Positions 4,137-63,135 of a stretch of 64,000 nt of DNA are shown here, in pieces. Below the pieces are notes generated by a model, which was not told the origin of the DNA, did not search any database, and worked only from the letters and a program-made list of their open reading frames with translations. This DNA comes from a bacterium (GTDB taxonomy: Bacteria; Patescibacteriota; Minisyncoccia; UBA6257; UBA9933), in assembly GCA_021796335.1 (NCBI GenBank), contig JAJYHZ010000001.1, positions 219,454 through 283,453 on the forward strand. The letters run 5' to 3'. Made by a program: the position numbers and the translations under genes. Position 1 is the first letter of the stretch. Each line of letters starts with the position of its first letter.

Positions 4137-5305
4137 AAATTACCCAATCTTATTATCTCTTCCGCAATAGTCTGGGCGGCCTGAGGTTTGGAAAAATTTT
4201 TAGCCGCAAGAGACATCAATTTCAACAATTCCGGATTTTGGAATAATCTATTTATTTGATCTATGAATAAATGCGGTTTTAAATTTTCATCCTCAATAAC
4301 GATAGCCGCTCCCTTATCGGCATATTCGTAAGCGTTTTTAATTTGATGCTCGCCCGCAATCTCTTTTGATAAGGGCAATAAAATCGCCGGCTTACCCGCC
4401 GCGGCAACTTCAAAGATTGATCCGCTCCCCGCTCTTGATACAATCAGATCCGCGGCCGCATAAGCGTCCTTAATGTCGTCATTGAAATACGCCGCGATCC
4501 TAAAGGCGAATTTCAAATCATCGGGCAGGGTGTCGGCCGTTAATTTCCATTCCGATTTTATCTCGTCGAAGTTATTTATCCCGGTTTGCAATAAAATCTG
4601 TAATCCTCCGCTGACCAGCTCCTTTCCGATATTCACAAAAAAATCATTAATCCGCATAGCTCCTTGAGATCCGCCCAAAACCAGAATAAGCGGTTTTTCC
4701 GGATTGAATTCAAAAATTTTTTTTGCAACTTGCCTGTTAATGTCACCTTCTTTCAGTAAAAAATTTCTTATCGGATTTCCGACTAAAGCTATCTTTGCCA
4801 AAACATCGCCTTTATCTTGTTCTTTTTCGTAATGATCCGCAAAAGATTCCGCCGTTTTTTCAAATCCTATCGCAATCCGATCCGCATATTTGCTGGAAAA
4901 AAGGTTGGAAAAACCGGCGATTGAATCGGATTCATGGATTATTATGGGAATGCGATAAAATTTGCATGCCAGAACGACGGGTACCGAACCTGTTCCGCCT
5001 TTTGAAAATAAAACGTCCGGCATTATCCAAAAAACTTTCCAAAATGCCTGAATAATACCTAATAATAATCTGGGTAATGTAAAAATATTTCGGATATCGG
5101 AATACCTTCTGCGCTTCGCCGAAATCAATTTCGAAATCCGCACTCCATTGCTTACTAAAACAAATTCAAAATTTCCCGGACATCCCAAATAAATAATTTC
5201 CATCGGAATTCTTTTTTGATCGGAAATAATTTTTAATTGTTCGGCGACGGAAATCAAAGGATAAATATGGCCGCCGGAATCTCCTCCTGTCAATAAAATC
5301 CTCAT
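4133..5305 (-). CDS. murG: undecaprenyldiphospho-muramoylpentapeptide beta-N-acetylglucosaminyltransferase
   Basis: MRILLTGGDSGGHIYP N-terminus, GGSQGA motif, 390 aa. Adjacent to ftsW. Confidence 0.85.
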   Translation of the reverse strand: MRILLTGGDSGGHIYPLISVAEQLKIISDQKRIPMEIIYLGCPGNFEFVLVSNGVRISKLISAKRRRYSDIRNIFTLPRLLLGIIQAFWKVFWIMPDVLFSKGGTGSVPVVLACKFYRIPIIIHESDSIAGFSNLFSSKYADRIAIGFEKTAESFADHYEKEQDKGDVLAKIALVGNPIRNFLLKEGDINRQVAKKIFEFNPEKPLILVLGGSQGAMRINDFFVNIGKELVSGGLQILLQTGINNFDEIKSEWKLTADTLPDDLKFAFRIAAYFNDDIKDAYAAADLIVSRAGSGSIFEVAAAGKPAILLPLSKEIAGEHQIKNAYEYADKGAAIVIEDENLKPHLFIDQINRLFQNPELLKLMSLAAKNFSKPQAAQTIAEEIIRLGNL

Positions 5306-8416: not shown

Positions 8417-11152
8417 TTATGGATTCGTAATCGTGCAGGTGTTGCCGCAGGAGCCTGCCGGCGTCTTACCGGTCATGGTTTCGTAATGTGCGTCGATCTG
8501 CGCCTGCGAAAGCAAGTGATCATACACTGCCACCTTACCCACCGCGCCCTTGAACCATGTGTCCATCGCCATCGTACCGATGGTAAGAGGTGATGAACCC
8601 GCTTTCGGCGCAATATCGTACTGGCTCATACAGCCAGTCGGCGCGTGCGCAGCAAAATCTTGCTTAACGCCATCCACCCAGATGTTAATGGTGCCTGGAT
8701 ATGCCGAAGAACAAGCCGGGGGTGTTTGTGTCGTGTCATATTCCGCAACGACATAAACCCACATACCAGTCTTAAACAAGCCTGCGACCGGCTGCCAATC
8801 CGCCGCGCTGCCTAAACCCGCGGATGGATTAAAGACATAAGCGGAGAAGCGGTTCGGACGGTTTTCAGGGGTGACAGCGCTGTAAAGACGCGCCTCCCAC
8901 TCACAGCTTGGCGAGTAGTTCTCGCATTTTCCCATCCAATCAACATAGCCATCACCGCTTGCGTTCGGGAACTGAAGTGTGTCAAGCCGCACCCAACCTT
9001 CCCAGGTAAGCTGACCGGTAGTCGGGATGGAAAGCGCAGGATTAGACGGAACCGTAAGATACTCGCTTGAACCGTTAAAGTCGGCGGCGATATCGCCGTT
9101 AGGCATTGCTACCGTGCTTGGCGTACCGCCTTTGTAGGTGCCGTCATTACCGTGGCCAGAAAGATCTGTCTCGTGCCCCGACGAAGACGAATTCATCGAA
9201 AAATACATAACCGGATTATCGGCAAGTATGAGCGAGTCGTATGTCGAAGCCGGAACTGAAGCTGATACTGGGTCAAGAGTGGAAATCGGCGCCAAAGCGC
9301 TATTTACTGCAACCGATGAATTAGAAAAAACATAATTTTTGAACGAAGCATCCATAAAATCTGTTCTAACTCCCCCATAACCGGTGTTTGTCATCGGCGA
9401 TCCTCCTTGTGATCCGTTATCGGTTGTCTGAACCGCTAAAACCCAATTTCCAGTATTATTCTTGTCAATATAAACCTGGATAAGAACCGAACCATCCGGC
9501 TGGTTAGTTACAACCGAGCGAAGTCCGATCCATGTATTTAGCGGAATTAAATTGGGATTACTGTTCTGATTGTAATTTCCGGAATAAACCTTGTTTAAAG
9601 CAAGTGTGTAGTATGCGCCATTTTCTTTTTTCTTAATTACGGCCTGCCCGTCAACACGAATACCGGTATAATAAACATTATTCTGATCGACGTATCTATT
9701 AAAAAAGAAAATGCCATTTGACGCGTTCCTATTCGGACTCGAACTTAACCAATACTTAGACACATTAAAATACGCCTGTTGCGATTCATTTTGATTTGAT
9801 GATTTAGTTACCAAACGAAAGATATTTTGCGGATGATAACCGTTATCAGTATCCACCGGATTTGTACTGTTGTACAAAATTCTCCATGGATCATTACTCG
9901 GCAAGCTTCCCGTAATTGATTTTCCCACTCCATTATTTACATAAAAGTATGCGCCCGAACTTAACCACCAATCCGAATCAGCACTTGCACTCATGGAATC
10001 TGCTTCAGTAATTATTCGATTTGCATTGAGTCCATAATAATTAGAAGTGGAAGTAGAAATGTTTACAGTAGAAGAACTTGTCTGGATATTTGTCGTCGAC
10101 GTTGTTGGACTGTTTGATTGAATTGACGTATTGCTTAATGTCTCACTGCCAGCGTCTGCAAAAGCATTAATGTAATTGAGATCTGTTGCTGTAGATTGTT
10201 CTGTTCGAAACGCATAACCAAGACCAACTGTTTTTTCTGACGATCCTTGCGGAGTTACGTAAATATCATAACTATGGTTGGGAATATCGATTGCCAAGCG
10301 GAATGTGTAAGTATTCCCCGCAGTATAAGGAATTGCGGTTTGAGCTTGATAACTTGAGCCGTTTCTGGCATCAATGTTCCCGTTAGTATTGAATCTGACG
10401 ATTGCGGCAAGATCAGTAAATTTTGAAGCTAATTGAGAAGACAGTCCGATAACGCCGTCCATATTATTTCCGTTTGGTATTGCATCAAAAGTAGCAGTGA
10501 ATTTGCCATTTTGAGCAGTTATTGGATTTCCTTGCCAGACGGAATTTGTTGTTATTGAGTTGTTTGTATTTGTTGTTGTCGTCGACGTTGTTGGACTGTT
10601 TGATTGAATTGACGTATTGCTTAATGTCTCACTGCCAGCGTCTGCAAAAGCATTAATGTAATTGAGATCTGTTGCTGTAGATTGTTCTGTTCGAAACGCA
10701 TAACCAAGACCAACTGTTTTTTCTGACGATCCTTGCGGAGTTACGTAAATATCATAACTATGGTTGGGAATATCGATTGCCAAGCGGAATGTGTAAGTAT
10801 TCCCCGCAGTATAAGGAATTGCGGTTTGAGCTTGATAACTTGAGCCGTTTCTGGCATCAATGTTCCCGTTAGTATTGAATCTGACGATTGCGGCAAGATC
10901 AGTAAATTTTGAAGCTAATTGAGAAGACAGTCCGATAACGCCGTCCATATTATTTCCGTTTGGTATTGCATCAAAAGTAGCAGTGAATTTGCCATTTTGA
11001 GCAGTTATTGGATTTCCTTGCCAGACGGAATTTGTTGTTATTGTTAAGGTTGAATTAGTAACGGCATTAGCTGGTAAAATTATCAAGCTAAGCGCCATTA
11101 TTCCCAATAAAACACCTGAAAATGCTTTATTGAGATTAGAAGCATAATTCAT
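8417..11152 (-). CDS. secreted repeat protein with C-terminal LamG/concanavalin-A-like domain
   Basis: 911 aa with a signal peptide (MNYASNLNKAFSGVLLGIMALSLIILPANA). It has two identical ~162-aa modules and S/T-rich linkers. The C-terminal segment ...DLSGHGNDGTYKGG...FNGSSEYLTVP...WEGWVRL is typical of LamG-like jellyroll domains. The 3' third (8417-9400) is much GC-richer than the rest of the gene. Confidence 0.75.
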   Translation of the reverse strand: MNYASNLNKAFSGVLLGIMALSLIILPANAVTNSTLTITTNSVWQGNPITAQNGKFTATFDAIPNGNNMDGVIGLSSQLASKFTDLAAIVRFNTNGNIDARNGSSYQAQTAIPYTAGNTYTFRLAIDIPNHSYDIYVTPQGSSEKTVGLGYAFRTEQSTATDLNYINAFADAGSETLSNTSIQSNSPTTSTTTTNTNNSITTNSVWQGNPITAQNGKFTATFDAIPNGNNMDGVIGLSSQLASKFTDLAAIVRFNTNGNIDARNGSSYQAQTAIPYTAGNTYTFRLAIDIPNHSYDIYVTPQGSSEKTVGLGYAFRTEQSTATDLNYINAFADAGSETLSNTSIQSNSPTTSTTNIQTSSSTVNISTSTSNYYGLNANRIITEADSMSASADSDWWLSSGAYFYVNNGVGKSITGSLPSNDPWRILYNSTNPVDTDNGYHPQNIFRLVTKSSNQNESQQAYFNVSKYWLSSSPNRNASNGIFFFNRYVDQNNVYYTGIRVDGQAVIKKKENGAYYTLALNKVYSGNYNQNSNPNLIPLNTWIGLRSVVTNQPDGSVLIQVYIDKNNTGNWVLAVQTTDNGSQGGSPMTNTGYGGVRTDFMDASFKNYVFSNSSVAVNSALAPISTLDPVSASVPASTYDSLILADNPVMYFSMNSSSSGHETDLSGHGNDGTYKGGTPSTVAMPNGDIAADFNGSSEYLTVPSNPALSIPTTGQLTWEGWVRLDTLQFPNASGDGYVDWMGKCENYSPSCEWEARLYSAVTPENRPNRFSAYVFNPSAGLGSAADWQPVAGLFKTGMWVYVVAEYDTTQTPPACSSAYPGTINIWVDGVKQDFAAHAPTGCMSQYDIAPKAGSSPLTIGTMAMDTWFKGAVGKVAVYDHLLSQAQIDAHYETMTGKTPAGSCGNTCTITNP
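10085..11043. repeat. perfect tandem direct repeat, 2 x 486 bp, inside the CDS
   Basis: The sequence tgtcgtcgacgttgttggactgtttgattgaattgacgtattgcttaatg... recurs with an offset of exactly 486 bp (10091 vs 10577). About 470 bp of each copy are identical by eye. Confidence 0.85.
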
Positions 11153-12866: not shown

Positions 12867-15617
12867 TTATTGCGGATTTAGCATTTTTATTCCATAATCA
12901 TTAGTCACCACCTTTACTCCGGTCTGCGCGATATAATCCACTATTTGCTGGAATAATGCCGGCGTGATCGCGTAATTATCATTACTTGAATCAACCCTGT
13001 GAAATACTAAAACCAGCCATGTTTTGTCGGCGATTGACTGGTTAATCCAATTTTCGAACTGAGCCAAAGTGGTCGTATTTACCGCTTCCTGATATTTCAA
13101 TAAAAAATGGTCTGTTGATTTATCATTAAATCCGCTTTGCGTCGTTCTCGCTCCGACATATAATCCTGAATTTTTTAAAATCTGAACGGAAGTTGCGTCA
13201 TATTCTCCAAAAGGATAAGCAAATGTTGTTACATTTATGCCGATGCTATTTAGGGCATCCCACGAACCAGTAATTTCGTTCTGTTGGTCCGCATACGATA
13301 ATTGCGGCAAATGCGAATGATCAATCGTGTGCGAACCAATTTCCATTCCTTGGCTCTGCATATCCAAAACTTGAGCCGCATTTACGTAATCCGTATAATT
13401 GCCGTTAAGCGTATTGGTTATTATGTAAAATGTCCCTGATAAATTCGCTTGTTTTAAAATCGGAAAAGCTGTCTGATAAGCAGATATGTCACCATCATCG
13501 AAATTCAACGAAACCATCCCTTCAGAAAATTTATAAGGATTGTTTCCTAAATCTTTTAAATAATAATCATCTACTTTTAAAGATCCGACTCCGGTCAAAC
13601 TATGAAAAATAGTTATGGTTTTTGTGCCTGACGGAACTGCAAATTTTACATCAACCCCATTCCAGTTGTTTGCAAGAGTCGGACTCGCAATCGTTTGATA
13701 TTGATATGTCCCATCGGACATATGTAGCGCGACTTCAACCGTGTTTTGCGCAGTAGCCATATATTTATCCGAAAATTCATATAAATCTCCCGAAGTCGCA
13801 TTAACTTCAGAAAAATACCATTTCGCATCGCCGTTAGTATAGGAAGAAATATCAATTTCAGCCGCTTTACTATTAGTGCCGTCCACACCCGAAACCGGAT
13901 AAATAAAATTTGGAGTATTTACTCCCCATCCTCCCTCATACCAATTTTGCGGCAAACCTGTTGCGGAATCTGCAATTTCAAAGGATGGGTTCTTAATTAA
14001 ATTATCAGTTGATGTAGGAGGCGGAGGAGGAGGCGTCGGAGAAGTTATATCATTTAAATTAAATTCCCCGGTTGTTAATGAACCGACGCTCACCAAAGAG
14101 TGCAAAATTGTAACAGATTGCGAATTAGCAGGAGCAATAAAAGTGGACGTTGCAACTGCCGGGCTAATTGATGCCCCGGGCCTTGATAAAAGCAAATAAG
14201 AATATGTTCCGTCTGCTAAATGCACTCTGGCAATTATTGCCGTTGATGTGTCGGCGGTATAATAGTCGGAAAATTGGTATTGATGGCCGGGAATAACCGC
14301 AACATCCTTAAAATACCATCTGGAAGCTCCGCTTGTATATGAAGATATGCTTATTTTTGCCGCATCATCATTATTAAATCCCGCGACAGGATAAGTAAAT
14401 GTTGTTTGGTTAACGCCCCAATTGCCCTTATACCAGCCCTGTGGCAGACCGCTTGAAGCATCCATTAATGAAAGCGAGGGATTGAAAATTAAGTTATCAG
14501 TATTTGTTGCCGCAGGCGGCGAAGGCGGAGGAGAAGGCGTTGATGTTGATAAATAAAAATTGTCGGTTGTCAGCGAACCTGCGCTGTCCAAATATTGGTA
14601 AATATTAAGCGATTGCACGCCCGTCGGCACGACAAAAGTTGTTGTGCTGTTTTTCCATGCGTTGGATGCCGATTGAGGAAAATCAATATAAGAATAATAC
14701 CCGCCGGATAAAGTATAGCGTATTTCCAATGTAGTCGGAACTGTTGCAATGTAGGAATCGGAGAAAGTGTAAGTTTGTCCCGGTGTTGCCGGAATATCGC
14801 CGAAGGTCCACTTGGCATCTCCGCTTGTGTATGAAGTCATATCAACCTTGGCTGCATTCCCTCCGTCAATGCCCGGTACGGAATAAGTAAAGTTCGATTG
14901 GTTTATTCCCCATTTATCTTCTGTCCATCCCGCAGGCAAGCCGTCTGCGCCTACTGAATCAAAGGAACCATTATTAATTAAATTGCCGCCAGAAGACGAT
15001 GGAGGCGGAGAAATTATTGAATTTGCAATCAAGGAAAAATTATCTACTGTGAGCGATCCCACATTATCTAAATATTGATATATTGTAAATGACTTAACTC
15101 CGGCAGGAACCGTAAAAGTAGATGTGGAAGATTGCCACGTATCCGAAATGCTTGGAAATACAATGTCGTCATAAGTATAATTCCCATTAATTAAGAGATA
15201 TCTGACCTCAATCGTAGTCGGAACTGTTGCAATATAAGAATCGGAGAAAGTGTAAGTTTGTCCCGGTGTTGCCGGAATATCGCCGAAGGTCCACTTGGCA
15301 TCTCCGCTTGTGTATGAAGTCATATCAACCTTGGCTGCATTCCCTCCGTCAATGCCCGGTACGGGATAAGTAAAGTTCGATTGGTTTATTCCCCAGCTGT
15401 CTTGCGACCAACCTGCCGGCGCTCCATTTGCGCCCGTAATTTCAAAAGACCCATTGGGAATAAGATTCGATAAATCGCTTGCTTTTGTCTTAGAAATTAT
15501 CGGAAAATTCAAGGAGTTAAAAACAAAAATTATTGAAAAAAATACAACTAGGAACCTAAGAAAAACTCTTTTCATAGTATTGAAGAAAATAAAACGACCT
15601 TTTATTTTAAATTTCAA
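12867..15617 (-). CDS. secreted protein with 4 CBM-like modules and a C-terminal polysaccharide deacetylase (CE4/NodB) domain
   Basis: 916 aa with a signal anchor. It has four ~160-aa modules (NGSFE...GWxxDxWGxNQSxFTY...YTSGDAKW...Y), which are CBM4/9-like, joined by P/S linkers. The C-terminus has NFDDGDISAY...GSHTIDHSHL, which are CE4 deacetylase motifs. Confidence 0.75.
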   Translation of the reverse strand: MKFKIKGRFIFFNTMKRVFLRFLVVFFSIIFVFNSLNFPIISKTKASDLSNLIPNGSFEITGANGAPAGWSQDSWGINQSNFTYPVPGIDGGNAAKVDMTSYTSGDAKWTFGDIPATPGQTYTFSDSYIATVPTTIEVRYLLINGNYTYDDIVFPSISDTWQSSTSTFTVPAGVKSFTIYQYLDNVGSLTVDNFSLIANSIISPPPSSSGGNLINNGSFDSVGADGLPAGWTEDKWGINQSNFTYSVPGIDGGNAAKVDMTSYTSGDAKWTFGDIPATPGQTYTFSDSYIATVPTTLEIRYTLSGGYYSYIDFPQSASNAWKNSTTTFVVPTGVQSLNIYQYLDSAGSLTTDNFYLSTSTPSPPPSPPAATNTDNLIFNPSLSLMDASSGLPQGWYKGNWGVNQTTFTYPVAGFNNDDAAKISISSYTSGASRWYFKDVAVIPGHQYQFSDYYTADTSTAIIARVHLADGTYSYLLLSRPGASISPAVATSTFIAPANSQSVTILHSLVSVGSLTTGEFNLNDITSPTPPPPPPTSTDNLIKNPSFEIADSATGLPQNWYEGGWGVNTPNFIYPVSGVDGTNSKAAEIDISSYTNGDAKWYFSEVNATSGDLYEFSDKYMATAQNTVEVALHMSDGTYQYQTIASPTLANNWNGVDVKFAVPSGTKTITIFHSLTGVGSLKVDDYYLKDLGNNPYKFSEGMVSLNFDDGDISAYQTAFPILKQANLSGTFYIITNTLNGNYTDYVNAAQVLDMQSQGMEIGSHTIDHSHLPQLSYADQQNEITGSWDALNSIGINVTTFAYPFGEYDATSVQILKNSGLYVGARTTQSGFNDKSTDHFLLKYQEAVNTTTLAQFENWINQSIADKTWLVLVFHRVDSSNDNYAITPALFQQIVDYIAQTGVKVVTNDYGIKMLNPQ
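14731..15420. repeat. intragenic direct repeat, period 483 bp, ~200 bp near-identical
   Basis: gtagtcggaactgttgcaat...gcattccctccgtcaatgcccggtacgg occurs at 14731 and again at 15214. It corresponds to two of the four CBM-like modules. Confidence 0.75.
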
Positions 15618-35156: not shown

Positions 35157-37550
35157 TTATACAAGTTCCGTTTCTTTTTCCCTTACAAAGAAATGATAAA
35201 TGCCGAATCCTATTAGAAGTCCGAGTAAAAGATCGAACAGCCAGTTGCCGAACAGAGTCCCTATGGTTCCAAGTATTGAAGCAGAAATCGACGGGCCGCC
35301 CGCCACGATTATAGTCAGGTAAGAACTTACGGCTTGGAATCTTCCCCTGTAATCTGAATAGTTCATAATCGAAGTAAATACCAGTGAATCTCCCCCTTTG
35401 GCAGAATTATTTACTTTTACTTTCATATTGACGGCGCTTTGGCTGTTTGCCGCAACAGTTCCGATCATAAACTTAAGATTATTATTCTCTTGAGAAGAAG
35501 GCTGTATATCTGCGCTTTCATAAGAGACTTCGTTCGGCAAAGCAATTTGCAAAACCGCATTTGAAACCGCGCGATTACCGCTATTCTTATACACGACGGT
35601 ATAAGTCATTTCATCTCCCGCATTCGGATTATTATTATCAACCGAAGGAGTGAGTGAAACTGTTATGCCCGGAGCCGCAGGAGGAGTGTAAACCGCTATC
35701 CCCGTACTTGGAATTGCATACGCCGGAGATTTAGTAGTAAAAGTAAGCATACTTCCGTAACTCGTACCCGCCGCGTTTTGCGCAACCGCCCTGAAATAAT
35801 ATGTCGTGTTTGAATTTAATCCGGATAAAGCGAACGATAAAGGAACGGACAATGAATCATGCCCGGCCGGCTGAACAGTTGTTTCGAATCCAAAAGAAGG
35901 GGTCGCCCCCCATTCAAACCAGGCGTTTGTAAATAGATTATTAGTTATAACCGCTCCGTTTAATACGGTGGAGTTCTGGTATACAATGCTTGCCGGTAAA
36001 GTCGTCACCATCGGTGCTTGCCCGCCTGCGCTTATAACTGCTCCGCTGCCGGTCGTAAATGTCAGAATACTTCCGTAATTCGTGCCAAAAGAATTTTGTG
36101 CAACCGCTCGATAATAATAAACGGCATTAGGAGTAAGGTTGCTTATAAAAGTATTTACGTTCATAAACCCGTTAATCTGCTGGAATCCAGACGTATATCC
36201 CAAGTTTTGTGTCGGTCCGTATTCAAACCACATACTTGCAACTGATCCGTTTGAATTCACGTCTCCATTTAAGGTTGCGGAATTCGAGGTAATATTAGTT
36301 GCCGCATCAGTATTGACGGTCGGAGCAGAAGAGATAAATCCCGTGCCGAATTGAGAGGTATTAAACGACACTATGCTTCCGTAAGTCGTGCCAAAAGAAT
36401 TTTGAGCGACTATGCGAAAATAATATGTAGTATTTGTGTTTAATGAGGAGAGGAAACTGGCGATATTAACCGCAAAATTTCCGCTTCCCGCATCCTGTGA
36501 TGCCGTTGTGAATCCCAAAGATCCGGTCGGTCCGTATTCAAACCAAACATTGGTTTCCGAATTGTTCGAATTAACAGTTCCGTTCAAAACCGCCGAATTT
36601 TGCGTAATATTAGTGGCCAAATTAGTGGTCACGATAGGAGCCACTCCGTTTATTGCGCCAGTTTGAGTTGTAAACGAAATCACATTCCCATAAGTTGTCC
36701 CAAAGGAATTTTGAGCAACTGCCCGGAAATAATAAGTTTGTCCAGAATTAAGTCCGCTCAAAAATGAAGTTATATTGAAAGCCGAATTTCCGCTGCCAAT
36801 ATTTTGGAACCCAATAGTTGATCCCAAAGAAGGGCTTGTTCCATATTCAAACCAAACGGTGGTATTTGATCCGTTTGGATTAACGCTGCCGTTTAAACTT
36901 GCGGAATTTTGCGAAATATTTGTTACAAATTGATTTAAGATAGCCGGAGCTTGGTTTTGCGCGGACTGCGACTGGCTGCTTAATTGGGCCCTGAAAACAA
37001 TATAGCCCTGTGCGCTCCATCCCGGCGCGATATCACCTATATTCAGGCCGGAAAAAGAAACTATTTCCGAACCGTTTTGGCCGTTTAATAAACCGGTTGA
37101 ATTACTCGAATCATGATTAGCGAACCATTTTACCGTTCCGGGAAGAAAAGCCAGGGTTTGAGAATTTCCCGAACTGATATTTAATGAAACATTCCCATTC
37201 GCCGAATTCGCGTTAGAAGAAAAAATTGTCCCGTTTATTGTTTGAGAAGTAAAATTTCCCGTTGGTAAATTTACGCTCGCATGCGTCTGTGAAGCCGTAA
37301 CATCCGAAGTGTTGTGGTAATAAACCAAAAAACTGATTACGTCTCCGGGATTTGCGGAAACAGAAGTTGACCAGCAGCTAGTGCATCCCGGATGCTGCGT
37401 ATAATTGGAAATCTGCAATGTCGGATAATCTTTGGGGTCAGTATTAAATGTCGCTGTTGCCGCTTGCGCGCTCAATAACGGCAAAAATATCGCCATTGTA
37501 AAAATTCCGACAAAACCTGCTTTTAAAATTATTGTTAACTTTTTTTTCAT
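35157..37550 (-). CDS. cell-surface repeat protein (4 Fn3/PKD-like modules + DUF11-like domain + C-terminal TM anchor)
   Basis: 797 aa with a signal peptide. It has four ~95-aa repeats (NITxNSAxLNGxVNxN..xWFEYG...YYFRAVAQNSFGTxYG). The DUF11-like segment is TYTVVYKNSGN. The C-terminal segment WLFDLLLGLLIGFGIYHFF is a TM helix. Confidence 0.7.
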   Translation of the reverse strand: MKKKLTIILKAGFVGIFTMAIFLPLLSAQAATATFNTDPKDYPTLQISNYTQHPGCTSCWSTSVSANPGDVISFLVYYHNTSDVTASQTHASVNLPTGNFTSQTINGTIFSSNANSANGNVSLNISSGNSQTLAFLPGTVKWFANHDSSNSTGLLNGQNGSEIVSFSGLNIGDIAPGWSAQGYIVFRAQLSSQSQSAQNQAPAILNQFVTNISQNSASLNGSVNPNGSNTTVWFEYGTSPSLGSTIGFQNIGSGNSAFNITSFLSGLNSGQTYYFRAVAQNSFGTTYGNVISFTTQTGAINGVAPIVTTNLATNITQNSAVLNGTVNSNNSETNVWFEYGPTGSLGFTTASQDAGSGNFAVNIASFLSSLNTNTTYYFRIVAQNSFGTTYGSIVSFNTSQFGTGFISSAPTVNTDAATNITSNSATLNGDVNSNGSVASMWFEYGPTQNLGYTSGFQQINGFMNVNTFISNLTPNAVYYYRAVAQNSFGTNYGSILTFTTGSGAVISAGGQAPMVTTLPASIVYQNSTVLNGAVITNNLFTNAWFEWGATPSFGFETTVQPAGHDSLSVPLSFALSGLNSNTTYYFRAVAQNAAGTSYGSMLTFTTKSPAYAIPSTGIAVYTPPAAPGITVSLTPSVDNNNPNAGDEMTYTVVYKNSGNRAVSNAVLQIALPNEVSYESADIQPSSQENNNLKFMIGTVAANSQSAVNMKVKVNNSAKGGDSLVFTSIMNYSDYRGRFQAVSSYLTIIVAGGPSISASILGTIGTLFGNWLFDLLLGLLIGFGIYHFFVREKETELV

Positions 37551-57820: not shown

Positions 57821-59572
57821 TTATGAACTTTTCTCCTGCTCCATTTCTAATAATTGTTCCGGATTTGTCGTTATTGTTTTGTCTTCAAAATAAGACGCCA
57901 CTATTTTGAGCGCAACGTGCTTCAAACCCACCAAAAACAATCCTTCGCCGACATCGGCCTGGCTCAACAGTCCTTTCTCGATTTCGCTCAAACTGAAAGT
58001 TTTTTCCAAAACGCCGATAGCAGACGGAGCCTGCTTTAATAATAACTGCAAAGATGAATTTGTTATTATCGGCTGGCCGTACTGCGAATTTAAAAAGTCT
58101 TCCACGTTCTGAGTAATCGTCGTAAGCCCCAAATAGTATTTTCTGCATCGCTTTGCCAAAGAAAATAAAAATGACGCGCTGTCCGGATACTTCATCATCC
58201 ACCACGCTTCATCGATTATCAAAATTCTTTTTTTTAGTTCCGATCTGATCAAATTCCACACAAAATTCAAAACGATATATACCGCAATCGGCCTTAACTC
58301 TTCCTCTAAATCCCTGATCGAAAAAACAACCAACCTGTTTTTTATATCAACGTTCGTCGGCTTATTCGCGAATCCGGCATAAGTCCCCTTTGTAAATTTA
58401 TATAATCGGGATGCCAAACTTTGACCGCCTTCGATATTTTCCAAAACAGTCTGTAAATCTTCGAGCAGTGGCGGCTCTATTTTTGAAAAATCTTCCACAT
58501 CGGCGGTAATCCCGCGCGAAGCATAAGTTTCCGTAATGGCTCGGTCCAAAAGCGCATCTTCTTCCGGCGTAATCTGCCCTACCATCAGCTTTAATAAACC
58601 GGCCAGGTTTAAAATATGAGATTTGAATACATCGGCCGGATCTTCGCCCTTCGGAACAATTGGAATATCCAAAGGATTAATAGAAGTTTTTGAAGTTAAA
58701 GAAATTTTCAAAACGCTTCCCCCAACCGCCTCCGCAAGCCTTTGGTATTCGTTTTCAGGATCAATAACCATAATGTCTATTCCCATCATCAATGAACGCA
58801 GGATCTCCAATTTTGTCGCATAAGATTTCCCCGCGCCGGCTTTCGCAAAAACCACCTGGTTCGCATTTTCCAAAGAAAACCTGTCAAAAATAACCAGCGA
58901 ATTATTAAACCGGTTAATCCCGTACAAAACTCCCGTGTCCGAAGTCAGATCGGTTGAAACAAAAGGAAACAAGGATGAAGCCGGATTTGTGTTTAAGGGC
59001 GTATAAATAGCCAACTTATCCTGGCCTGTCGGCATTGTTGATATGAATCCTTCGATATGCTGAAAAATCGCCGGTTTCGCATAGACCATCTGGCTATCCA
59101 GAATCGAAATAACCTGTTCTTCCAGCTTATTCAATTCATCCACGGTCTTCGCATAAATAGTTACATAGACCCCTACATTGAAAAGTTTTTCCTGAGCCTG
59201 CTGCAATTGGTCGCGCAAATTTTCTATATCCTGATAAGCGGTTTCCAGAACAGGATCGCGGACCAATCCTTTATCGTCTCTTTCAGAAAGCTGGGACTCG
59301 ATTTGAGTAACCTTCTTTCTCAGCTGCTTCAAAGCGGTGGTGGTATCAACCGGATGGACGAAAACGGAAACATCCAAAAGATTCGGAAGATTTATTATTG
59401 AATCAAACCATCCCGTGGACAAATATCGCGGATAAGTGAAAACAAAAAGAGTTTTAGAAACTATATCCCCCAACCTTAAATAATTCGGATTCACTTCCAA
59501 GGCCGCGGGAGCAATCACATTTTTCACATCTTCCTCCTTCGAATTGAATGGTTGTGGAATTTCTATTTTCAT
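57821..59572 (-). CDS. VirB4-like T4SS ATPase (TrsE/TcpF/Orf16-type), core + ATPase domains
   Basis: Walker A AKAGAGKSYAT, Walker B/DEAW motif LIIDEAWWMM and YPRYLSTGWFDSIINLPNLLDVSVFVHPVD, typical of Gram-positive VirB4 homologues. 583 aa, which is short. Confidence 0.8.
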   Translation of the reverse strand: MKIEIPQPFNSKEEDVKNVIAPAALEVNPNYLRLGDIVSKTLFVFTYPRYLSTGWFDSIINLPNLLDVSVFVHPVDTTTALKQLRKKVTQIESQLSERDDKGLVRDPVLETAYQDIENLRDQLQQAQEKLFNVGVYVTIYAKTVDELNKLEEQVISILDSQMVYAKPAIFQHIEGFISTMPTGQDKLAIYTPLNTNPASSLFPFVSTDLTSDTGVLYGINRFNNSLVIFDRFSLENANQVVFAKAGAGKSYATKLEILRSLMMGIDIMVIDPENEYQRLAEAVGGSVLKISLTSKTSINPLDIPIVPKGEDPADVFKSHILNLAGLLKLMVGQITPEEDALLDRAITETYASRGITADVEDFSKIEPPLLEDLQTVLENIEGGQSLASRLYKFTKGTYAGFANKPTNVDIKNRLVVFSIRDLEEELRPIAVYIVLNFVWNLIRSELKKRILIIDEAWWMMKYPDSASFLFSLAKRCRKYYLGLTTITQNVEDFLNSQYGQPIITNSSLQLLLKQAPSAIGVLEKTFSLSEIEKGLLSQADVGEGLFLVGLKHVALKIVASYFEDKTITTNPEQLLEMEQEKSS

Positions 59573-59588
59573 TTAAATAATTTTCTTT

Positions 59589-59608
59589 AGGTTAATTAGA
59601 ATAATTAG
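59589..59608 (-). promoter_or_regulatory. CTAATTA iteron-like motif copy A (20-mer ctaattattctaattaacct)
   Basis: Lies 16 nt upstream of the VirB4-ATPase ATG. It is a near-identical 20-mer to copy B and consists of three 8-bp-spaced CTAATTA units. Confidence 0.4.
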
Positions 59609-59679
59609 TAATTAGTTTAAATTTTATTTATTATTTTAACTCGTTATCGCGTTAACCCGTTAATACCTAATCTATTGGT

Positions 59680-60333
59680 TTATTTATCTTGTCGTACTAT
59701 ATGCAATTCTTTCTTTTCCATCGGCTGCGGATTGTATAAATTGTAAAATAATTCTATCAATTCCTCGGTCATAAGCGCGACCGCCCGCAAACCGATTGCA
59801 GATAACCCGGCGACAACCTCATCAGTCCTTTGATCTAATTGGCTTATCTTTTCTTCCAGGGTTTGTGCATCCTCCGACGCGTTTTTTTTCTTCTTGCCAA
59901 AAAACGGAATTGCTTCCATAACTTTTTCGGTTCCCTCGGAGATATTTATCGCATCATATGGAACGACAACGAAAAAATTTTTGGACATAATTTCGTTTGA
60001 TTCAACGAAAGATTTCACAAATTCCACGTACTCGGAAATCTGATCTTTCAGCAAGTCGTTCTTTTCGTTCTCCTGCATCTCACTTAAATTATCCAAATAC
60101 CCTTTGATATTTAATTTCCTCGAGTGAATGACTATTTGTAATGAAAAATCGAGGGAATTCAAAAAATTTTGATAAGCTCCCAAAATCGCGTTCTGCTCGT
60201 CTTCGGATTTCAATTCGAAGTTAATTCCCGTTACCATCAAAACCCGCCGTAAAGAGCCGCTTTTTAAAATAACTGTCCCGTCGCGGATTTCTTCGATATC
60301 AACAAATTGTTGGGTTGATTGGGATTCTTTCAT
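59680..60333 (-). CDS. protein resembling the N-terminal (CagE/TrbE/VirB4 N-domain) part of VirB4
   Basis: 217 aa with no TM helix. DGTVILKSGSLRRVLMVTGINFELKSEDEQNAILGAYQNFLNSL matches the pattern of the VirB4 N-terminal domain as I recall it. It lies 107 bp upstream of the ATPase ORF on the same strand. Confidence 0.45.
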   Translation of the reverse strand: MKESQSTQQFVDIEEIRDGTVILKSGSLRRVLMVTGINFELKSEDEQNAILGAYQNFLNSLDFSLQIVIHSRKLNIKGYLDNLSEMQENEKNDLLKDQISEYVEFVKSFVESNEIMSKNFFVVVPYDAINISEGTEKVMEAIPFFGKKKKNASEDAQTLEEKISQLDQRTDEVVAGLSAIGLRAVALMTEELIELFYNLYNPQPMEKKELHIVRQDK

Positions 60334-60402
60334 AATAACTAATAGTAACTAGTCGTTGGTTTTTAGTTTTCGCAATAAACTTTTCAACATTTTCATAACT
60401 TC

Positions 60403-60711
60403 TTACAAGAATAATTTCAAACGAATGAATTCTTGTTTAGGTCTTAAGCCTAATTTCTTTGATAATAATAGCTGAGTTTCTGATTCTACGCCAGACCCAG
60501 AGGCAATAGAGATAACTTGATAGAACTCCTTTTTATGTCTTCGAGATAATCCTTCTGCGATATTTGAGGGTATTGATATGGCGCATCTCTTTATTTGGGA
60601 AGTTGTTCCATATAATTCATATTTTGGAAAAAACCTTGTTAGTTCATAAATTTCCAGAACTAATTCCATTGATTTATTCCAAACAATCAAATTTTTATAA
60701 GAGTTTTCCAT
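60403..60711 (-). CDS. four-helix-bundle protein (23S rRNA intervening-sequence protein / Avd-like family)
   Basis: 102 aa. LIVWNKSMELVLEIYELTRFFPKYELYGTTSQIKRCAISIPSNIAEGLSRRHKKEF..IASGSGVESETQLLLSKKLG is the canonical family pattern (VWQKA...P..E.YGL.SQ.RRAA.SI.SNIAEG...E...L). Confidence 0.7.
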   Translation of the reverse strand: MENSYKNLIVWNKSMELVLEIYELTRFFPKYELYGTTSQIKRCAISIPSNIAEGLSRRHKKEFYQVISIASGSGVESETQLLLSKKLGLRPKQEFIRLKLFL

Positions 60712-60757
60712 TTTTTTAAAAAATAATATCTAAAAACTAACGGCTAATACTAACCGA

Positions 60758-61270
60758 TTACCTGTAATCCACTCTCTTCGCCACTTCTTTTTCTCCGGTT
60801 AATTTTCTAAATACGCTGTATGAATCGGTTTGTTTTATCGGACCGGTTTTTTCCCTTCTCGGAATCGGATTTTTCGTCGTGGTTAAATCATTCCAAAGCT
60901 TTCCGATAGACGGCATGCCAAATGAGAAATCCTTCAAATTTTTCCTTTCTTCTAAAACTTTCTCATTGGGAATATCGATAACCGTGGTTTTCAATTCCCT
61001 TTGCCACAAATACATTCGCGGCTGCCAGAAAAAATTCAAAGCCGAAATTATTATTTTAATCAAAGGCTGTCCATTGTATCTGACAAAAGCCAAGGAAATT
61101 CCGATTACGGCTACGAAAGTCGTGAGTAATAACCAAATCCAGAACGGAAAAATAAAATAACCGATAAAACTGATTGCGCCCGCTCCCAATAAATAAAGAA
61201 GCTGCTTTAAAGTAAGCGGTCCGGCAATCTTATCCTCAACTTCAATAAATTGGGGTATTTGAAAGCGCAT
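60758..61270 (-). CDS. PrgI/TcpE-family (VirB3-like) T4SS membrane protein
   Basis: 170 aa. QIPQFIEVEDKIAGPLTLKQLLYLLGAGAI followed by two TM helices and RYNGQPL. This matches the Tn916 Orf17/PrgI pattern that normally sits directly upstream of the VirB4 homologue. Confidence 0.6.
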   Translation of the reverse strand: MRFQIPQFIEVEDKIAGPLTLKQLLYLLGAGAISFIGYFIFPFWIWLLLTTFVAVIGISLAFVRYNGQPLIKIIISALNFFWQPRMYLWQRELKTTVIDIPNEKVLEERKNLKDFSFGMPSIGKLWNDLTTTKNPIPRREKTGPIKQTDSYSVFRKLTGEKEVAKRVDYR

Positions 61271-61292
61271 ACAACAAAAATTAATCTAATTT

Positions 61293-61315
61293 CTAATTAG
61301 TCTAATTATTCTAAC
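61293..61315 (+). promoter_or_regulatory. CTAATTA iteron-like motif copy C (inverted orientation)
   Basis: ctaatttc taattagt ctaattat tctaac has four 8-bp-spaced units. It overlaps the stop of the upstream four-helix-bundle gene and lies ~35 bp upstream of the prgI-like start. Confidence 0.35.
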
Positions 61316-61659
61316 TTATTTTTAATTTTATTTCGAATTGAATTAAAAATTAAATTTAATTCCTTCGCTTCCTGCCATAATTTTCGAGCATCCTCTTTTA
61401 AGTCTGGAGATGTGACCACAGCCATTCTTAACCAATATTTTGTTTCTCGAGCTTCTTTTTTGCGAATCTCGATCTTATGTTGAAAATCCTTGCTTGATTC
61501 CGCATCGTCGGCTTCACAATAATTTGCGCCAATACTTGTTCCCGCTCTAACCAGCTGAATTATTATCGGCTTTATAATTGAATTTTGGAGAATTTTTTTA
61601 GAAAAATTTATAATTTCTTCACCAAATTTAGCGGTTCTTTCTTCCAAATCATATTTCAT
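61306..61659 (-). CDS. four-helix-bundle protein (23S rRNA IVS protein / Avd-like family), second divergent paralogue
   Basis: 117 aa. IIQLVRAGTSIGANYCEADDAESSKDFQHKIEIRKKEARETKYWLRM is a family hallmark (RSGTSIGANY.EA....S..DF..K..IA.KEA.ET.YWL). Confidence 0.7.
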   Translation of the reverse strand: MKYDLEERTAKFGEEIINFSKKILQNSIIKPIIIQLVRAGTSIGANYCEADDAESSKDFQHKIEIRKKEARETKYWLRMAVVTSPDLKEDARKLWQEAKELNLIFNSIRNKIKNKLE

Positions 61660-61674
61660 AATTGGAATTTACTT

Positions 61675-61694
61675 AGGTCAATTAGAATAATTAG
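61675..61694 (-). promoter_or_regulatory. CTAATTA iteron-like motif copy B (20-mer ctaattattctaattgacct)
   Basis: Lies 15 nt upstream of the four-helix-bundle gene ATG at 61659. It shares 19 of 20 nt with copy A at the same spacing from the ATG. Confidence 0.4.
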
Positions 61695-61947
61695 AGATTA
61701 GGTCAATTTTTACTATTCTATTTCCTTCAAATCTATTGATTTTCATTCTAACTCGTTAATAAGTAAATTAATGTAGCTATTTCCCTAATGTCCTCAAATC
61801 CACCATGTTTTCTTCCGCCGAATATCTTCTAATTTAATTTCTTCCGATAATTCGGAAAAATCTTTCCTTTTTTAAAACAATCTTGTCGTCAAAATTATTC
61901 TCATTATTAGTTGCATCACATATATCTGTTGTATATTGGTATTGTAT

Positions 61948-63135
61948 TTATTTCTCCAGCATCCTCAGATCCACGATATCTTCCTTCACAGGGATATCTT
62001 CCAGTTTTACTTCTTCCCGTGGCTCGGGCAGCTCCGCCGGTTTATTTAATGTAACGGTGTTATTTTCTTTTTCGACTTCCTTTTTAGGCAAAGGCTGATA
62101 AAAATTGACTGTTTTGGCCGGCTGTTCACCAATGATTTGTTTTTGAGGCAATACTGATTCCAGTTTATTTTCTCCGATAATATCCGGCAGTTCCGGCTTG
62201 TCAATTTTATTTAATTCCACGACCTTCGGCGCTGCCTGATAAAAATTAATACTGCTATTTTCTTTCGGCTTCAAAGGAAGATCTTCCAAAATTACAGGTT
62301 GCTCAAAATTGGCATTTTTTAATTCGGACTGTTCGGAAATTTTCACGCTTGGTTGGACGGCGGATTGCGGAGTCTGCGGCAGCGGATTATTGATTTGTTG
62401 CGCGATTTTTTCTTGCGCATTCATTTCAGCCGGCTGTCCGGAAGTTTGATTCAAAAAAGAATTTTTAAAATCGCTGTAATGCACGATTTTCATTTTCGGT
62501 TTTTCGGTCTCTCCGATTTCTGATGTTTTTGTTTTATTGAATAAACTTACCTCCGCTTCAACCGGTTTCTCGGGCATAGGAGGAATCTTCTCATCCCGCC
62601 TGAAAAGTCCGAAAATTCCGGAAAAAGAGGGCTTGGACTGCTTTATGGCGTTTACTTTTTTCTCTTCGTGAATAATAGCCGGCGCCTCTCCGATTTCATT
62701 CAAATTGACGGTCTTTGCGACTTCAGATGATGGAGCCGACGAAATTGCAATTTGCTCTGATTTCGAACCAAAATCAACCGGATTGTCGTTTACGGCAACC
62801 GATTCCTTATCTGAAACCGGACTGTATACTTCATTTAATTCATTTTGAATTGGAGAAAAAATTTTTCGATTGATTTCTTTTGCCAAAGATTCCGCAATTT
62901 CGTTTTTTACTCCCAAAGCAGCGATTTCTCTTTCCAGATCCGCGGCGCTTATAAAACCCAATATAATATAACCGCCGATTGAAGCAAGATCATATTTTTG
63001 ATCATCTGTTAAATGGAATGTATCGCCTAAATTCCATAATAAATTGGCGCTTTCTTCGGAAAATAAGGCTTCTTTTAAATTATCCGACAAAGTGTCATAT
63101 CTCCTGTCGATTTGTTCTTGCGGTATTTTTTTCAT
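61948..63135 (-). CDS. hypothetical protein, low-complexity P/E/K/Q-rich C-terminal half
   Basis: 395 aa with no TM helix. It is the first complete gene upstream of the T4SS-like block. Confidence 0.45.
   Translation of the reverse strand: MKKIPQEQIDRRYDTLSDNLKEALFSEESANLLWNLGDTFHLTDDQKYDLASIGGYIILGFISAADLEREIAALGVKNEIAESLAKEINRKIFSPIQNELNEVYSPVSDKESVAVNDNPVDFGSKSEQIAISSAPSSEVAKTVNLNEIGEAPAIIHEEKKVNAIKQSKPSFSGIFGLFRRDEKIPPMPEKPVEAEVSLFNKTKTSEIGETEKPKMKIVHYSDFKNSFLNQTSGQPAEMNAQEKIAQQINNPLPQTPQSAVQPSVKISEQSELKNANFEQPVILEDLPLKPKENSSINFYQAAPKVVELNKIDKPELPDIIGENKLESVLPQKQIIGEQPAKTVNFYQPLPKKEVEKENNTVTLNKPAELPEPREEVKLEDIPVKEDIVDLRMLEK

Follow-up and report, generated by a model that had tools for sequence, protein, structure and literature searches.

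Two adjacent genes very probably encode a VirB4 ATPase naturally split into two subunits in a chromosomal type IV secretion locus of Patescibacteria

The window analysed here, that is, the whole 64-kb stretch of contig JAJYHZ010000001.1 (positions 1-64000), contains a cluster of genes for a type IV secretion system (T4SS). Two adjacent open reading frames (ORFs) of this cluster, ORF1 with 217 amino acids (aa) and ORF2 with 583 aa, are the subject of this work. Both were located on the minus strand where a first-pass annotation, made from the sequence alone, had placed them, and they are separated by an AT-rich spacer (Table 1).

Table 1. Positions of the two ORFs, the spacer between them and the neighbouring features in the window
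Feature	Position	Strand	Details
ORF2 (VirB4 core gene)	57821..59572	minus	583 aa
Intergenic spacer ORF1/ORF2	59573..59679	minus	107 nucleotides (nt), AT-rich
45-nt repeat copy, solo inverted-repeat arm	59582..59626	minus	its end lies 9 nt before the ATG of ORF2
ORF1 (TrsD-like gene)	59680..60333	minus	217 aa
Four-helix-bundle gene (23S ribosomal RNA (rRNA) intervening sequence (IVS) protein family)	60403..60711	minus	PF05635 112 bits, TIGR02436 104 bits
PrgI/VirB3-like membrane protein gene	60758..61270	minus	Pfam PF12666 PrgI 40.7 bits, cut-off 27
Four-helix-bundle cassette	61276..61711	minus	gene 61306..61659, PF05635 52 bits

With respect to the DNA between the two ORFs, the spacer has a G + C content of 20.6%, compared with 38.6% for the entire window, and it carries several stop codons in each frame, with a TAA directly abutting the ATG of ORF2. 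The reading frames of ORF1 and ORF2 are offset by 2, so that the earlier description of an AT-rich gap of 107 bp without a frameshift-compatible overlap is borne out. As an alternative start of ORF2, gene callers use a GTG at 59527 in two public assemblies, which is preceded by AAGGAGG and would result in a protein of 568 aa. This candidate was rejected as the 15 residues upstream of it are conserved: the motif M-x-I-K-I-P-x-x-Y...E-D-V-K-N-V-I-A-P-A is kept from the ATG of ORF2 in 24 relatives, and the AGGAGG ahead of the GTG codes for a conserved K/E-E-D motif. Since the N-terminal motif is conserved from the ATG at 59572 in these 24 relatives, both the ORF2 of 583 aa and the gap of 107 nt stand. 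An obvious ribosome-binding motif is missing from most genes of the cluster.

ORF2 is predicted to code for a VirB4 / CD1110-type conjugal transfer ATPase. With 379.9 bits it passes the cut-off of 325 of the NCBIfam profile NF045971 (conju_CD1110), which it matches at positions 181-732 of 752, and its Pfam matches comprise P-loop_TraG, AAA_10 and DUF87 as well as the tail of TraC_F_IV (291-373 of 375). The C-terminal domain of the Thermoanaerobacter VirB4 (PDB 4AG5) aligns with residues 211-568 (E = 2.3e-46), and the YPR core and the Walker A/B motifs that had been attributed to the 583-aa ORF are indeed present, with YPRY at residue 47, GAGKS at 246-250 and IDEAW at 453-457. In addition, a VirB3-like gene, here of the PrgI family, is found adjacent, as is typical of VirB4 genes. 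A full N-terminal domain, in turn, is not found on the ORF2 polypeptide, as its coverage starts only at about position 181 of 752 in the CD1110 profile and at 250 of 792 in TIGR00929 (VirB4_CagE). Still, residues ~1-210 of ORF2 belong to the N-terminal domain because the alignment with 4AG5 starts only at residue 211.

For ORF1, which had been taken for the N-terminal domain of VirB4/TrbE, both the peptide DGTVILKSGSLRRVLMVTGINFELKSEDEQ and the lack of a transmembrane helix could be confirmed; the highest Kyte-Doolittle mean over 19 residues is 1.25, compared with 2.47 in the neighbouring PrgI protein. ORF1 matches the whole of the NCBIfam profile NF041427 for TrsD/TraD (positions 10-200 of 201, E = 3.9e-11), and it further matches the N-terminal parts of the VirB4 model NF045975 (99-236 of 894, E = 2.6e-13), of TIGR00929 (4-186 of 792, E = 5.4e-8) and of NF045971 (2-134 of 752, E = 7.9e-8). 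Precomputed Pfam annotations assign PF26593 TraC-like and PF27097 VirB4_TrbE_N to the protein, and the match to PF11130 TraC_F_IV stays under the cut-off with 14.7 bits. The assignment to the N-terminal domain of VirB4 thus holds as far as the N-terminal profile matches are concerned, and has to be narrowed to roughly the first half of this domain. In line with what is characteristic of TrsD/TraD, ORF1 codes for a small soluble protein and lies directly upstream of a gene for a VirB4-like ATPase. An identity as a PIN_12 protein was discarded, as the match of 23 bits (cut-off 32) has nothing else in its favour and is judged to be due to chance. A comparison of the ORF1 sequence with PDB chains gave no useful match, the top one, at E = 0.93, being to an unrelated enzyme from a plant.

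A comparison of both proteins with full-length VirB4 profiles shows that they cover adjacent, non-overlapping segments: ORF1 matches the first ~190 positions and ORF2 the remainder, and in the CD1110 profile positions 2-134 are followed by positions 181-732 without any overlap. When joined in silico, the two proteins give one continuous alignment with TIGR00929 (4-736 of 792) as well as with NF045975 (99-893 of 894), and the joined sequence scores higher on both profiles than either part by itself. Judging from the profile coverage, the start of the 4AG5 alignment and the joined alignment, the split lies near the middle of the N-terminal domain rather than where this domain meets the C-terminal one. 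The single-chain proteins VirB4, TrbE and TraC, such as R388 TrwK, the CD1110 family and the Thermoanaerobacter VirB4, have an identical domain order, but here the N-terminal domain is shared between two polypeptides, with the break near its middle.

Relatives in which both parts are fused in a single chain confirm this arrangement. In P0124 (797 aa), encoded next to PrgI and near dnaA, residues 4-222 correspond to ORF1 (52% identity) and residues 230-795 to ORF2 (62% identity), and the natural fusions carry each part once only, in unchanged order. In P0266 (898 aa) the junction is formed by a proline/alanine-rich linker of ~100 residues, the linkers of the fused forms ranging from ~7 to ~100 residues, and the free-standing homologues P0185 and P0243 have long low-complexity C-terminal tails. 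Because of the linker in P0266 and of these tails, the break can be placed in a variable linker, which is probably disordered. As this linker is poorly conserved and of variable length, split and fused versions would both be viable.

It could be argued that ORF1 is an independent accessory protein, derived from a diverged duplicate of the VirB4 N-terminus and encoded beside a complete VirB4. In fact, all that the literature says of TrsD is that it is 'remotely homologous to the N-terminal portion of VirB4', no function being assigned to it, and some of the TrsD-like genes of Gracilibacteria are not adjacent to virB4. However, precisely the region covered by ORF1 is lacking from ORF2, joining both parts raises the score in a continuous alignment, and the natural fusions hold each part a single time and in the same order. 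We therefore regard an accessory protein as very improbable.

The distribution of the split was assessed in a locus scan with one genome per species and an alignment of 17 sequences as query, which returned 80 loci, all of them from Patescibacteria. Apart from one locus cut by the end of its contig, 74 were split and 5 were fused in one ORF; in other words, the inspection of orthologous loci finds the same split in 74 of the 79 informative species-representative genomes, at 46-68% identity. Wherever the locus is split, the VirB4 gene lies directly downstream of the TrsD-like gene on the same strand, and in a Wolfebacteria genome with an ORF1 homologue of 68% identity it begins 4 nt past the stop codon. 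The PrgI gene has the same place in the gene order in the relatives L004 and L006. At the protein level, 6188 homologues of ORF1 were retrieved at E <= 1e-3. The best 120, with identities of 59-100%, come from Patescibacteria, and each of them is a free-standing protein with a length of 185-227 aa; amongst the best 150 representatives of clusters at 50% identity only 2 are longer than 700 aa.

Single-chain fusions occur in several separate lineages (loci L006, L020, L026, L032, L033 and L036; proteins P0124 and P0266). Since the fused forms are scattered amongst the split forms in a neighbour-joining tree of the VirB4 core, where they occupy at least four separate places, it appears that the ancestral state of this clade is the split one, with recurrent fusion.

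These data also bear on whether the two ORFs might be the remains of a single virB4 that was recently disrupted by a frameshift, a nonsense mutation or a small insertion, with a pseudogene or a patched gene as the outcome. Such an event is suggested by the unusually AT-rich gap holding a repeat arm related to that of a neighbouring cassette, by the two ORFs being out of frame, and by the relative L017, which looks frameshifted within its VirB4 gene. However, the split occurs at the same position not only in the 74 species mentioned but also in the staphylococcal plasmid pSK41, both ORFs are intact and of full length with conserved termini, and the gap measures merely 0-12 nt in many relatives. 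A recent disruption is thus hardly credible, being contradicted by the conservation of the split across the 74 species and in pSK41. With regard to L017, its VirB4 core has the initial ~150 residues (4654-5057) in a frame separate from the rest, owing either to a frameshift in the gene or to an error in the sequencing of that genome.

It also has to be considered whether an error in assembly or an indel introduced an artificial stop and gap into a continuous gene, given that the source is a metagenome-derived assembly. However, the 107-nt gap and its surroundings of 1001 nt are identical in a contig of an NCBI metagenome-assembled genome and in two ENA metagenome assemblies, and several stops occur in all three frames of the gap. 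The exact ORF1 protein is found in these three other assembly records, two of which differ from the window by 1 and 2 substitutions elsewhere, and because of these substitutions outside the identical region the records can be taken as separate assemblies of near-identical strains. An error of this kind is therefore barely conceivable, and together with disruption it is excluded as far as sequence comparison allows.

Of the two options originally offered, a genuine two-gene split and an old disruption repaired with its own start signal, the former is the one favoured by its presence in 74 of 79 species, by the complementary coverage of VirB4 and by the identity of the gap in three other records. 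ORF1 and ORF2 very probably code for one subunit each of a VirB4 ATPase that is naturally split and belongs to the chromosomal T4SS of a Patescibacteria (Paceibacteria/Wolfebacteria-like) bacterium, and the pair is predicted to constitute one functional VirB4 in two chains and neither a lesion nor an assembly error. With lengths in relatives ranging from an overlap of 14 nt to 445 nt, the spacer of 107 nt is not the scar of a gene disruption but a variable intergenic site.

This T4SS has its relatives amongst the conjugation systems of single-membrane bacteria, and a corresponding arrangement is found in pSK41. There, trsD (227 aa) lies 14 nt upstream of the gene for a VirB4-like protein of 672 aa (TrsE) and follows the gene for a small membrane protein or VirB3-like protein, just as the pair in the window follows PrgI. 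In BLASTP comparisons, ORF1 residues 4-201 align with residues 31-216 of the pSK41 TrsD, that is, over nearly the full length (22% identity, E = 1e-6), and residue 15 of ORF2 aligns with residue 33 of TrsE (23% identity, E = 9e-37), from which it follows that the breakpoint is the same in pSK41 and in the window. More generally, the pGO1/pSK41 subclass of staphylococcal and enterococcal MPF-FATA T4SSs likewise combines a soluble TrsD/TraD of ~220 aa with a shortened TrsE/TraE ATPase. In contrast to pSK41, the locus in the window is chromosomal and not plasmid-borne, and its spacer measures 107 nt instead of 14 nt.

In Patescibacteria themselves the pair is already known as TrsD and VirB4 (PMC12102498; NCBIfam NF041427) and is in this sense real but ordinary. 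The T4SS of this group has been treated by Quinonero-Coronel et al. 2025 (PMC12102498) and, for Ca. Southlakia epibionticum, by Wang et al. 2023. According to the former, no other T4SS component is as abundant in Patescibacteria as the TrsD homologues, 1,664 of the 2,272 adjoining virB4, and the TrsD homologue, VirB4 and PrgI/VirB3 are found together on the chromosome, so that the system in the window is the same one. The TrsD homologue of Ca. Southlakia epibionticum, the one species tested, is listed there as essential, and the T4SS is reported to be essential for the epibiotic growth of this one Patescibacteria species. The searched parts of PMC12102498 contain no statement on a split VirB4 or on complementarity, on fused variants or on a variable spacer, and TrsD is not mentioned in the main text of Guglielmini et al. 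2014. The complementarity of the pair and the position of the break in a variable linker halfway through the N-terminal domain are what the present analysis adds, as refinements and not as discoveries, and the novelty of the finding is small; solely the pattern of cassettes and hairpins in the spacer described below may be new.

As for the way in which a two-chain VirB4 might work, the adjacent genes would give rise, probably from a common transcript, to two polypeptides that would associate non-covalently and thereby rebuild a complete VirB4, ORF1 contributing the first half of the N-terminal domain and ORF2 the second half together with the Walker A/B ATPase domain. In the solved Gram-negative systems, the N-terminal domains of VirB4 link the protomers, are membrane-embedded and touch VirB3 and VirB8 (PMC12857230). 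By analogy, the TrsD-like half might form the membrane-proximal surface that provides the dimer contacts and binds VirB3, which is represented here by PrgI. The PrgI gene, whose product has a hydrophobic segment, lies just upstream of the secretion pair, and the N-terminal domain of VirB4 is expected to have PrgI/VirB3 as its partner. If this is correct, it offers a function for TrsD/TraD, for which none is given in the literature, namely that of the first half of the N-terminal domain of VirB4 as a separate chain, which would anchor the ATPase to VirB3 and the membrane. For annotation, it would mean that such a pair should be described as one functional VirB4 in two chains, and not as a pseudogene or as a 'hypothetical protein plus truncated ATPase'.

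Several points weigh against this reading. ORF1 reaches 43.1 bits on NF041427, far from the curated cut-off of 200, and because of this difference it should be regarded as a remote TrsD/TraD homologue and not as a curated member, differing from TrsD/TraD of the pSK41-type plasmids also in that the identity to the pSK41 proteins is only 22-23%. The AF2 model of ORF1 by itself has a moderate quality only (mean pLDDT 70.5); in a Foldseek search of the PDB with this model the top 14 matches were all to R388 TrwK/VirB4 with probabilities of 0.84-1.0, but they are weak, with E-values from 6e-3 to 0.15, TM <= 0.45 and a root mean square deviation of 9-12 A, and this modelled similarity is accordingly consistent with a VirB4 identity but not decisive. 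In addition, the tree of the VirB4 core has no support values. Finally, we infer the binding of ORF1 to ORF2 and the contact of ORF1 with PrgI indirectly, and the co-transcription of both genes solely from the gap having no terminator-like site.

The spacer in the window holds a 45-nt segment (59582-59626) that is a direct repeat of 61668-61712 with 82% identity and that is complementary to 61273-61314 at 83%; it corresponds to one arm of the inverted repeat around the neighbouring four-helix-bundle gene 61306..61659. It had been noted that the gap contains one copy of a 20-mer with CTAATTA. What remains of this is that three CTAATTA heptamers are found at 59593-59615 and that the 45-nt segment as such recurs elsewhere; CTAATTA as such is no more frequent in the window than expected, with 14 occurrences compared with 20 +/- 4.8 in shuffled sequences. 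Folding of the spacer RNA gave no significant sign of a hairpin or terminator (z-scores of -0.16 and -0.03), there are no promoter or terminator consensus sites within the spacer, and an Rfam scan of 59300-62000 had no match. In the Jorgensenbacteria relative L051, the sequence cttaattactaattatttac is found 20 nt upstream of the virB4 start; it resembles the CTAATTA run of the window, and this likeness may be due to chance in AT-rich DNA.

Amongst the relatives, 10 of the 15 spacers with a length of 76-120 nt fold as one hairpin spanning the whole spacer (z-scores of -2.5 to -10.8). This observation concerns the spacers of the loci L008, L009, L044, L050, L059, L064, L065, L074, L077, L082 and L085; the sequences of the hairpins are species-specific and built of short repeated 6-8-mers. 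The hairpins look like versions of a cassette without an ORF or like miniature inverted-repeat elements.

A cassette with an ORF is found in the window itself. Both four-helix-bundle genes of the 64-kb window are located in the secretion cluster. The gene at 61306..61659 is bracketed by inverted repeats of 52 nt (61276-61327 and 61660-61711) that are 77% complementary, and the RNA of the cassette would form a closing stem around the whole ORF, with a z-score of -4.18 for the cassette and of -4.73 for the flank duplex. The other gene, at 60403..60711, lies between the PrgI and the TrsD-like gene and is flanked by inverted repeats of 17 nt (60350-60366 and 60730-60746) with 88% complementarity, the duplex of which does not differ significantly from shuffled sequences (z-score of -0.98).

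In a set of 82 related loci, the 4 kb on either side of the TrsD-like gene contain 16 four-helix-bundle genes, which without exception have the orientation of the TrsD-like gene. In three relatives, a four-helix-bundle gene resides within the spacer between the TrsD-like gene and virB4 itself, each surrounded by inverted repeats of 35-42 nt, and the same spacer in L021 (4627-5073) carries, within an inverted repeat of 41 nt, a gene of 129 aa that is GxxExxY-like and not a four-helix-bundle gene. The pairing of the flanks was tested for 17 four-helix-bundle genes including the two of the window, one gene with too short a flank being left out; in 13 of the 17 the flanks pair far better than shuffled sequences, whereas the flanks of TrsD-like genes, used as control, show no such pairing (mean z-score of -0.16). 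Four-helix-bundle genes in spacers of the secretion operon were recorded at L004, L007, L021, L033, L034, L041, L067, L077, L082 and L085, always co-oriented with the operon; in most cases long inverted repeats surround them that can pair in a stem around the entire ORF, as in rRNA intervening sequences.

The stems of 23S rRNA intervening sequences are substrates of RNase III. It is possible, though rather doubtful, that the spacer between the two VirB4 halves of Patescibacteria repeatedly holds cassettes resembling rRNA intervening sequences, either small four-helix-bundle or GxxExxY-like genes within inverted repeats of 35-50 nt or whole-spacer hairpins without an ORF, that the gap in the window is a decayed copy reduced to one arm, and that these elements serve in the processing of the mRNA. 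If RNase III were to cut the stems of the cassettes, the mRNA of the operon would be processed between the two halves of VirB4, and their expression could become uncoupled. As to the gap itself, a decayed copy of such an element is the preferred reading, although the odds between it and a plain AT-rich regulatory spacer are roughly even. Literature searches on four-helix-bundle genes flanked by inverted repeats returned nothing relevant, and in the literature that could be searched neither this class of element nor a role of it in mRNA processing is described.

With regard to the remainder of the window, every non-nested ORF of at least 150 aa is located on the minus strand, so that all 64 kb seem to be read in a single direction; a search for tRNA genes gave none. 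Three large ORFs contain internal repeats. The ORF at 8417..11152 has an exact repeat of 300 nt with copies 486 nt apart (region 10090-10875), a duplicate that could be an effect of the assembly, the ORF at 12867..15617 has a repeat of 264 nt at 86% identity (region 14688-15434), and the ORF at 35157..37550 has four repeat units at a spacing of ~310 nt (region 35733-36864). These repeat-bearing ORFs probably code for surface proteins with repeat domains.

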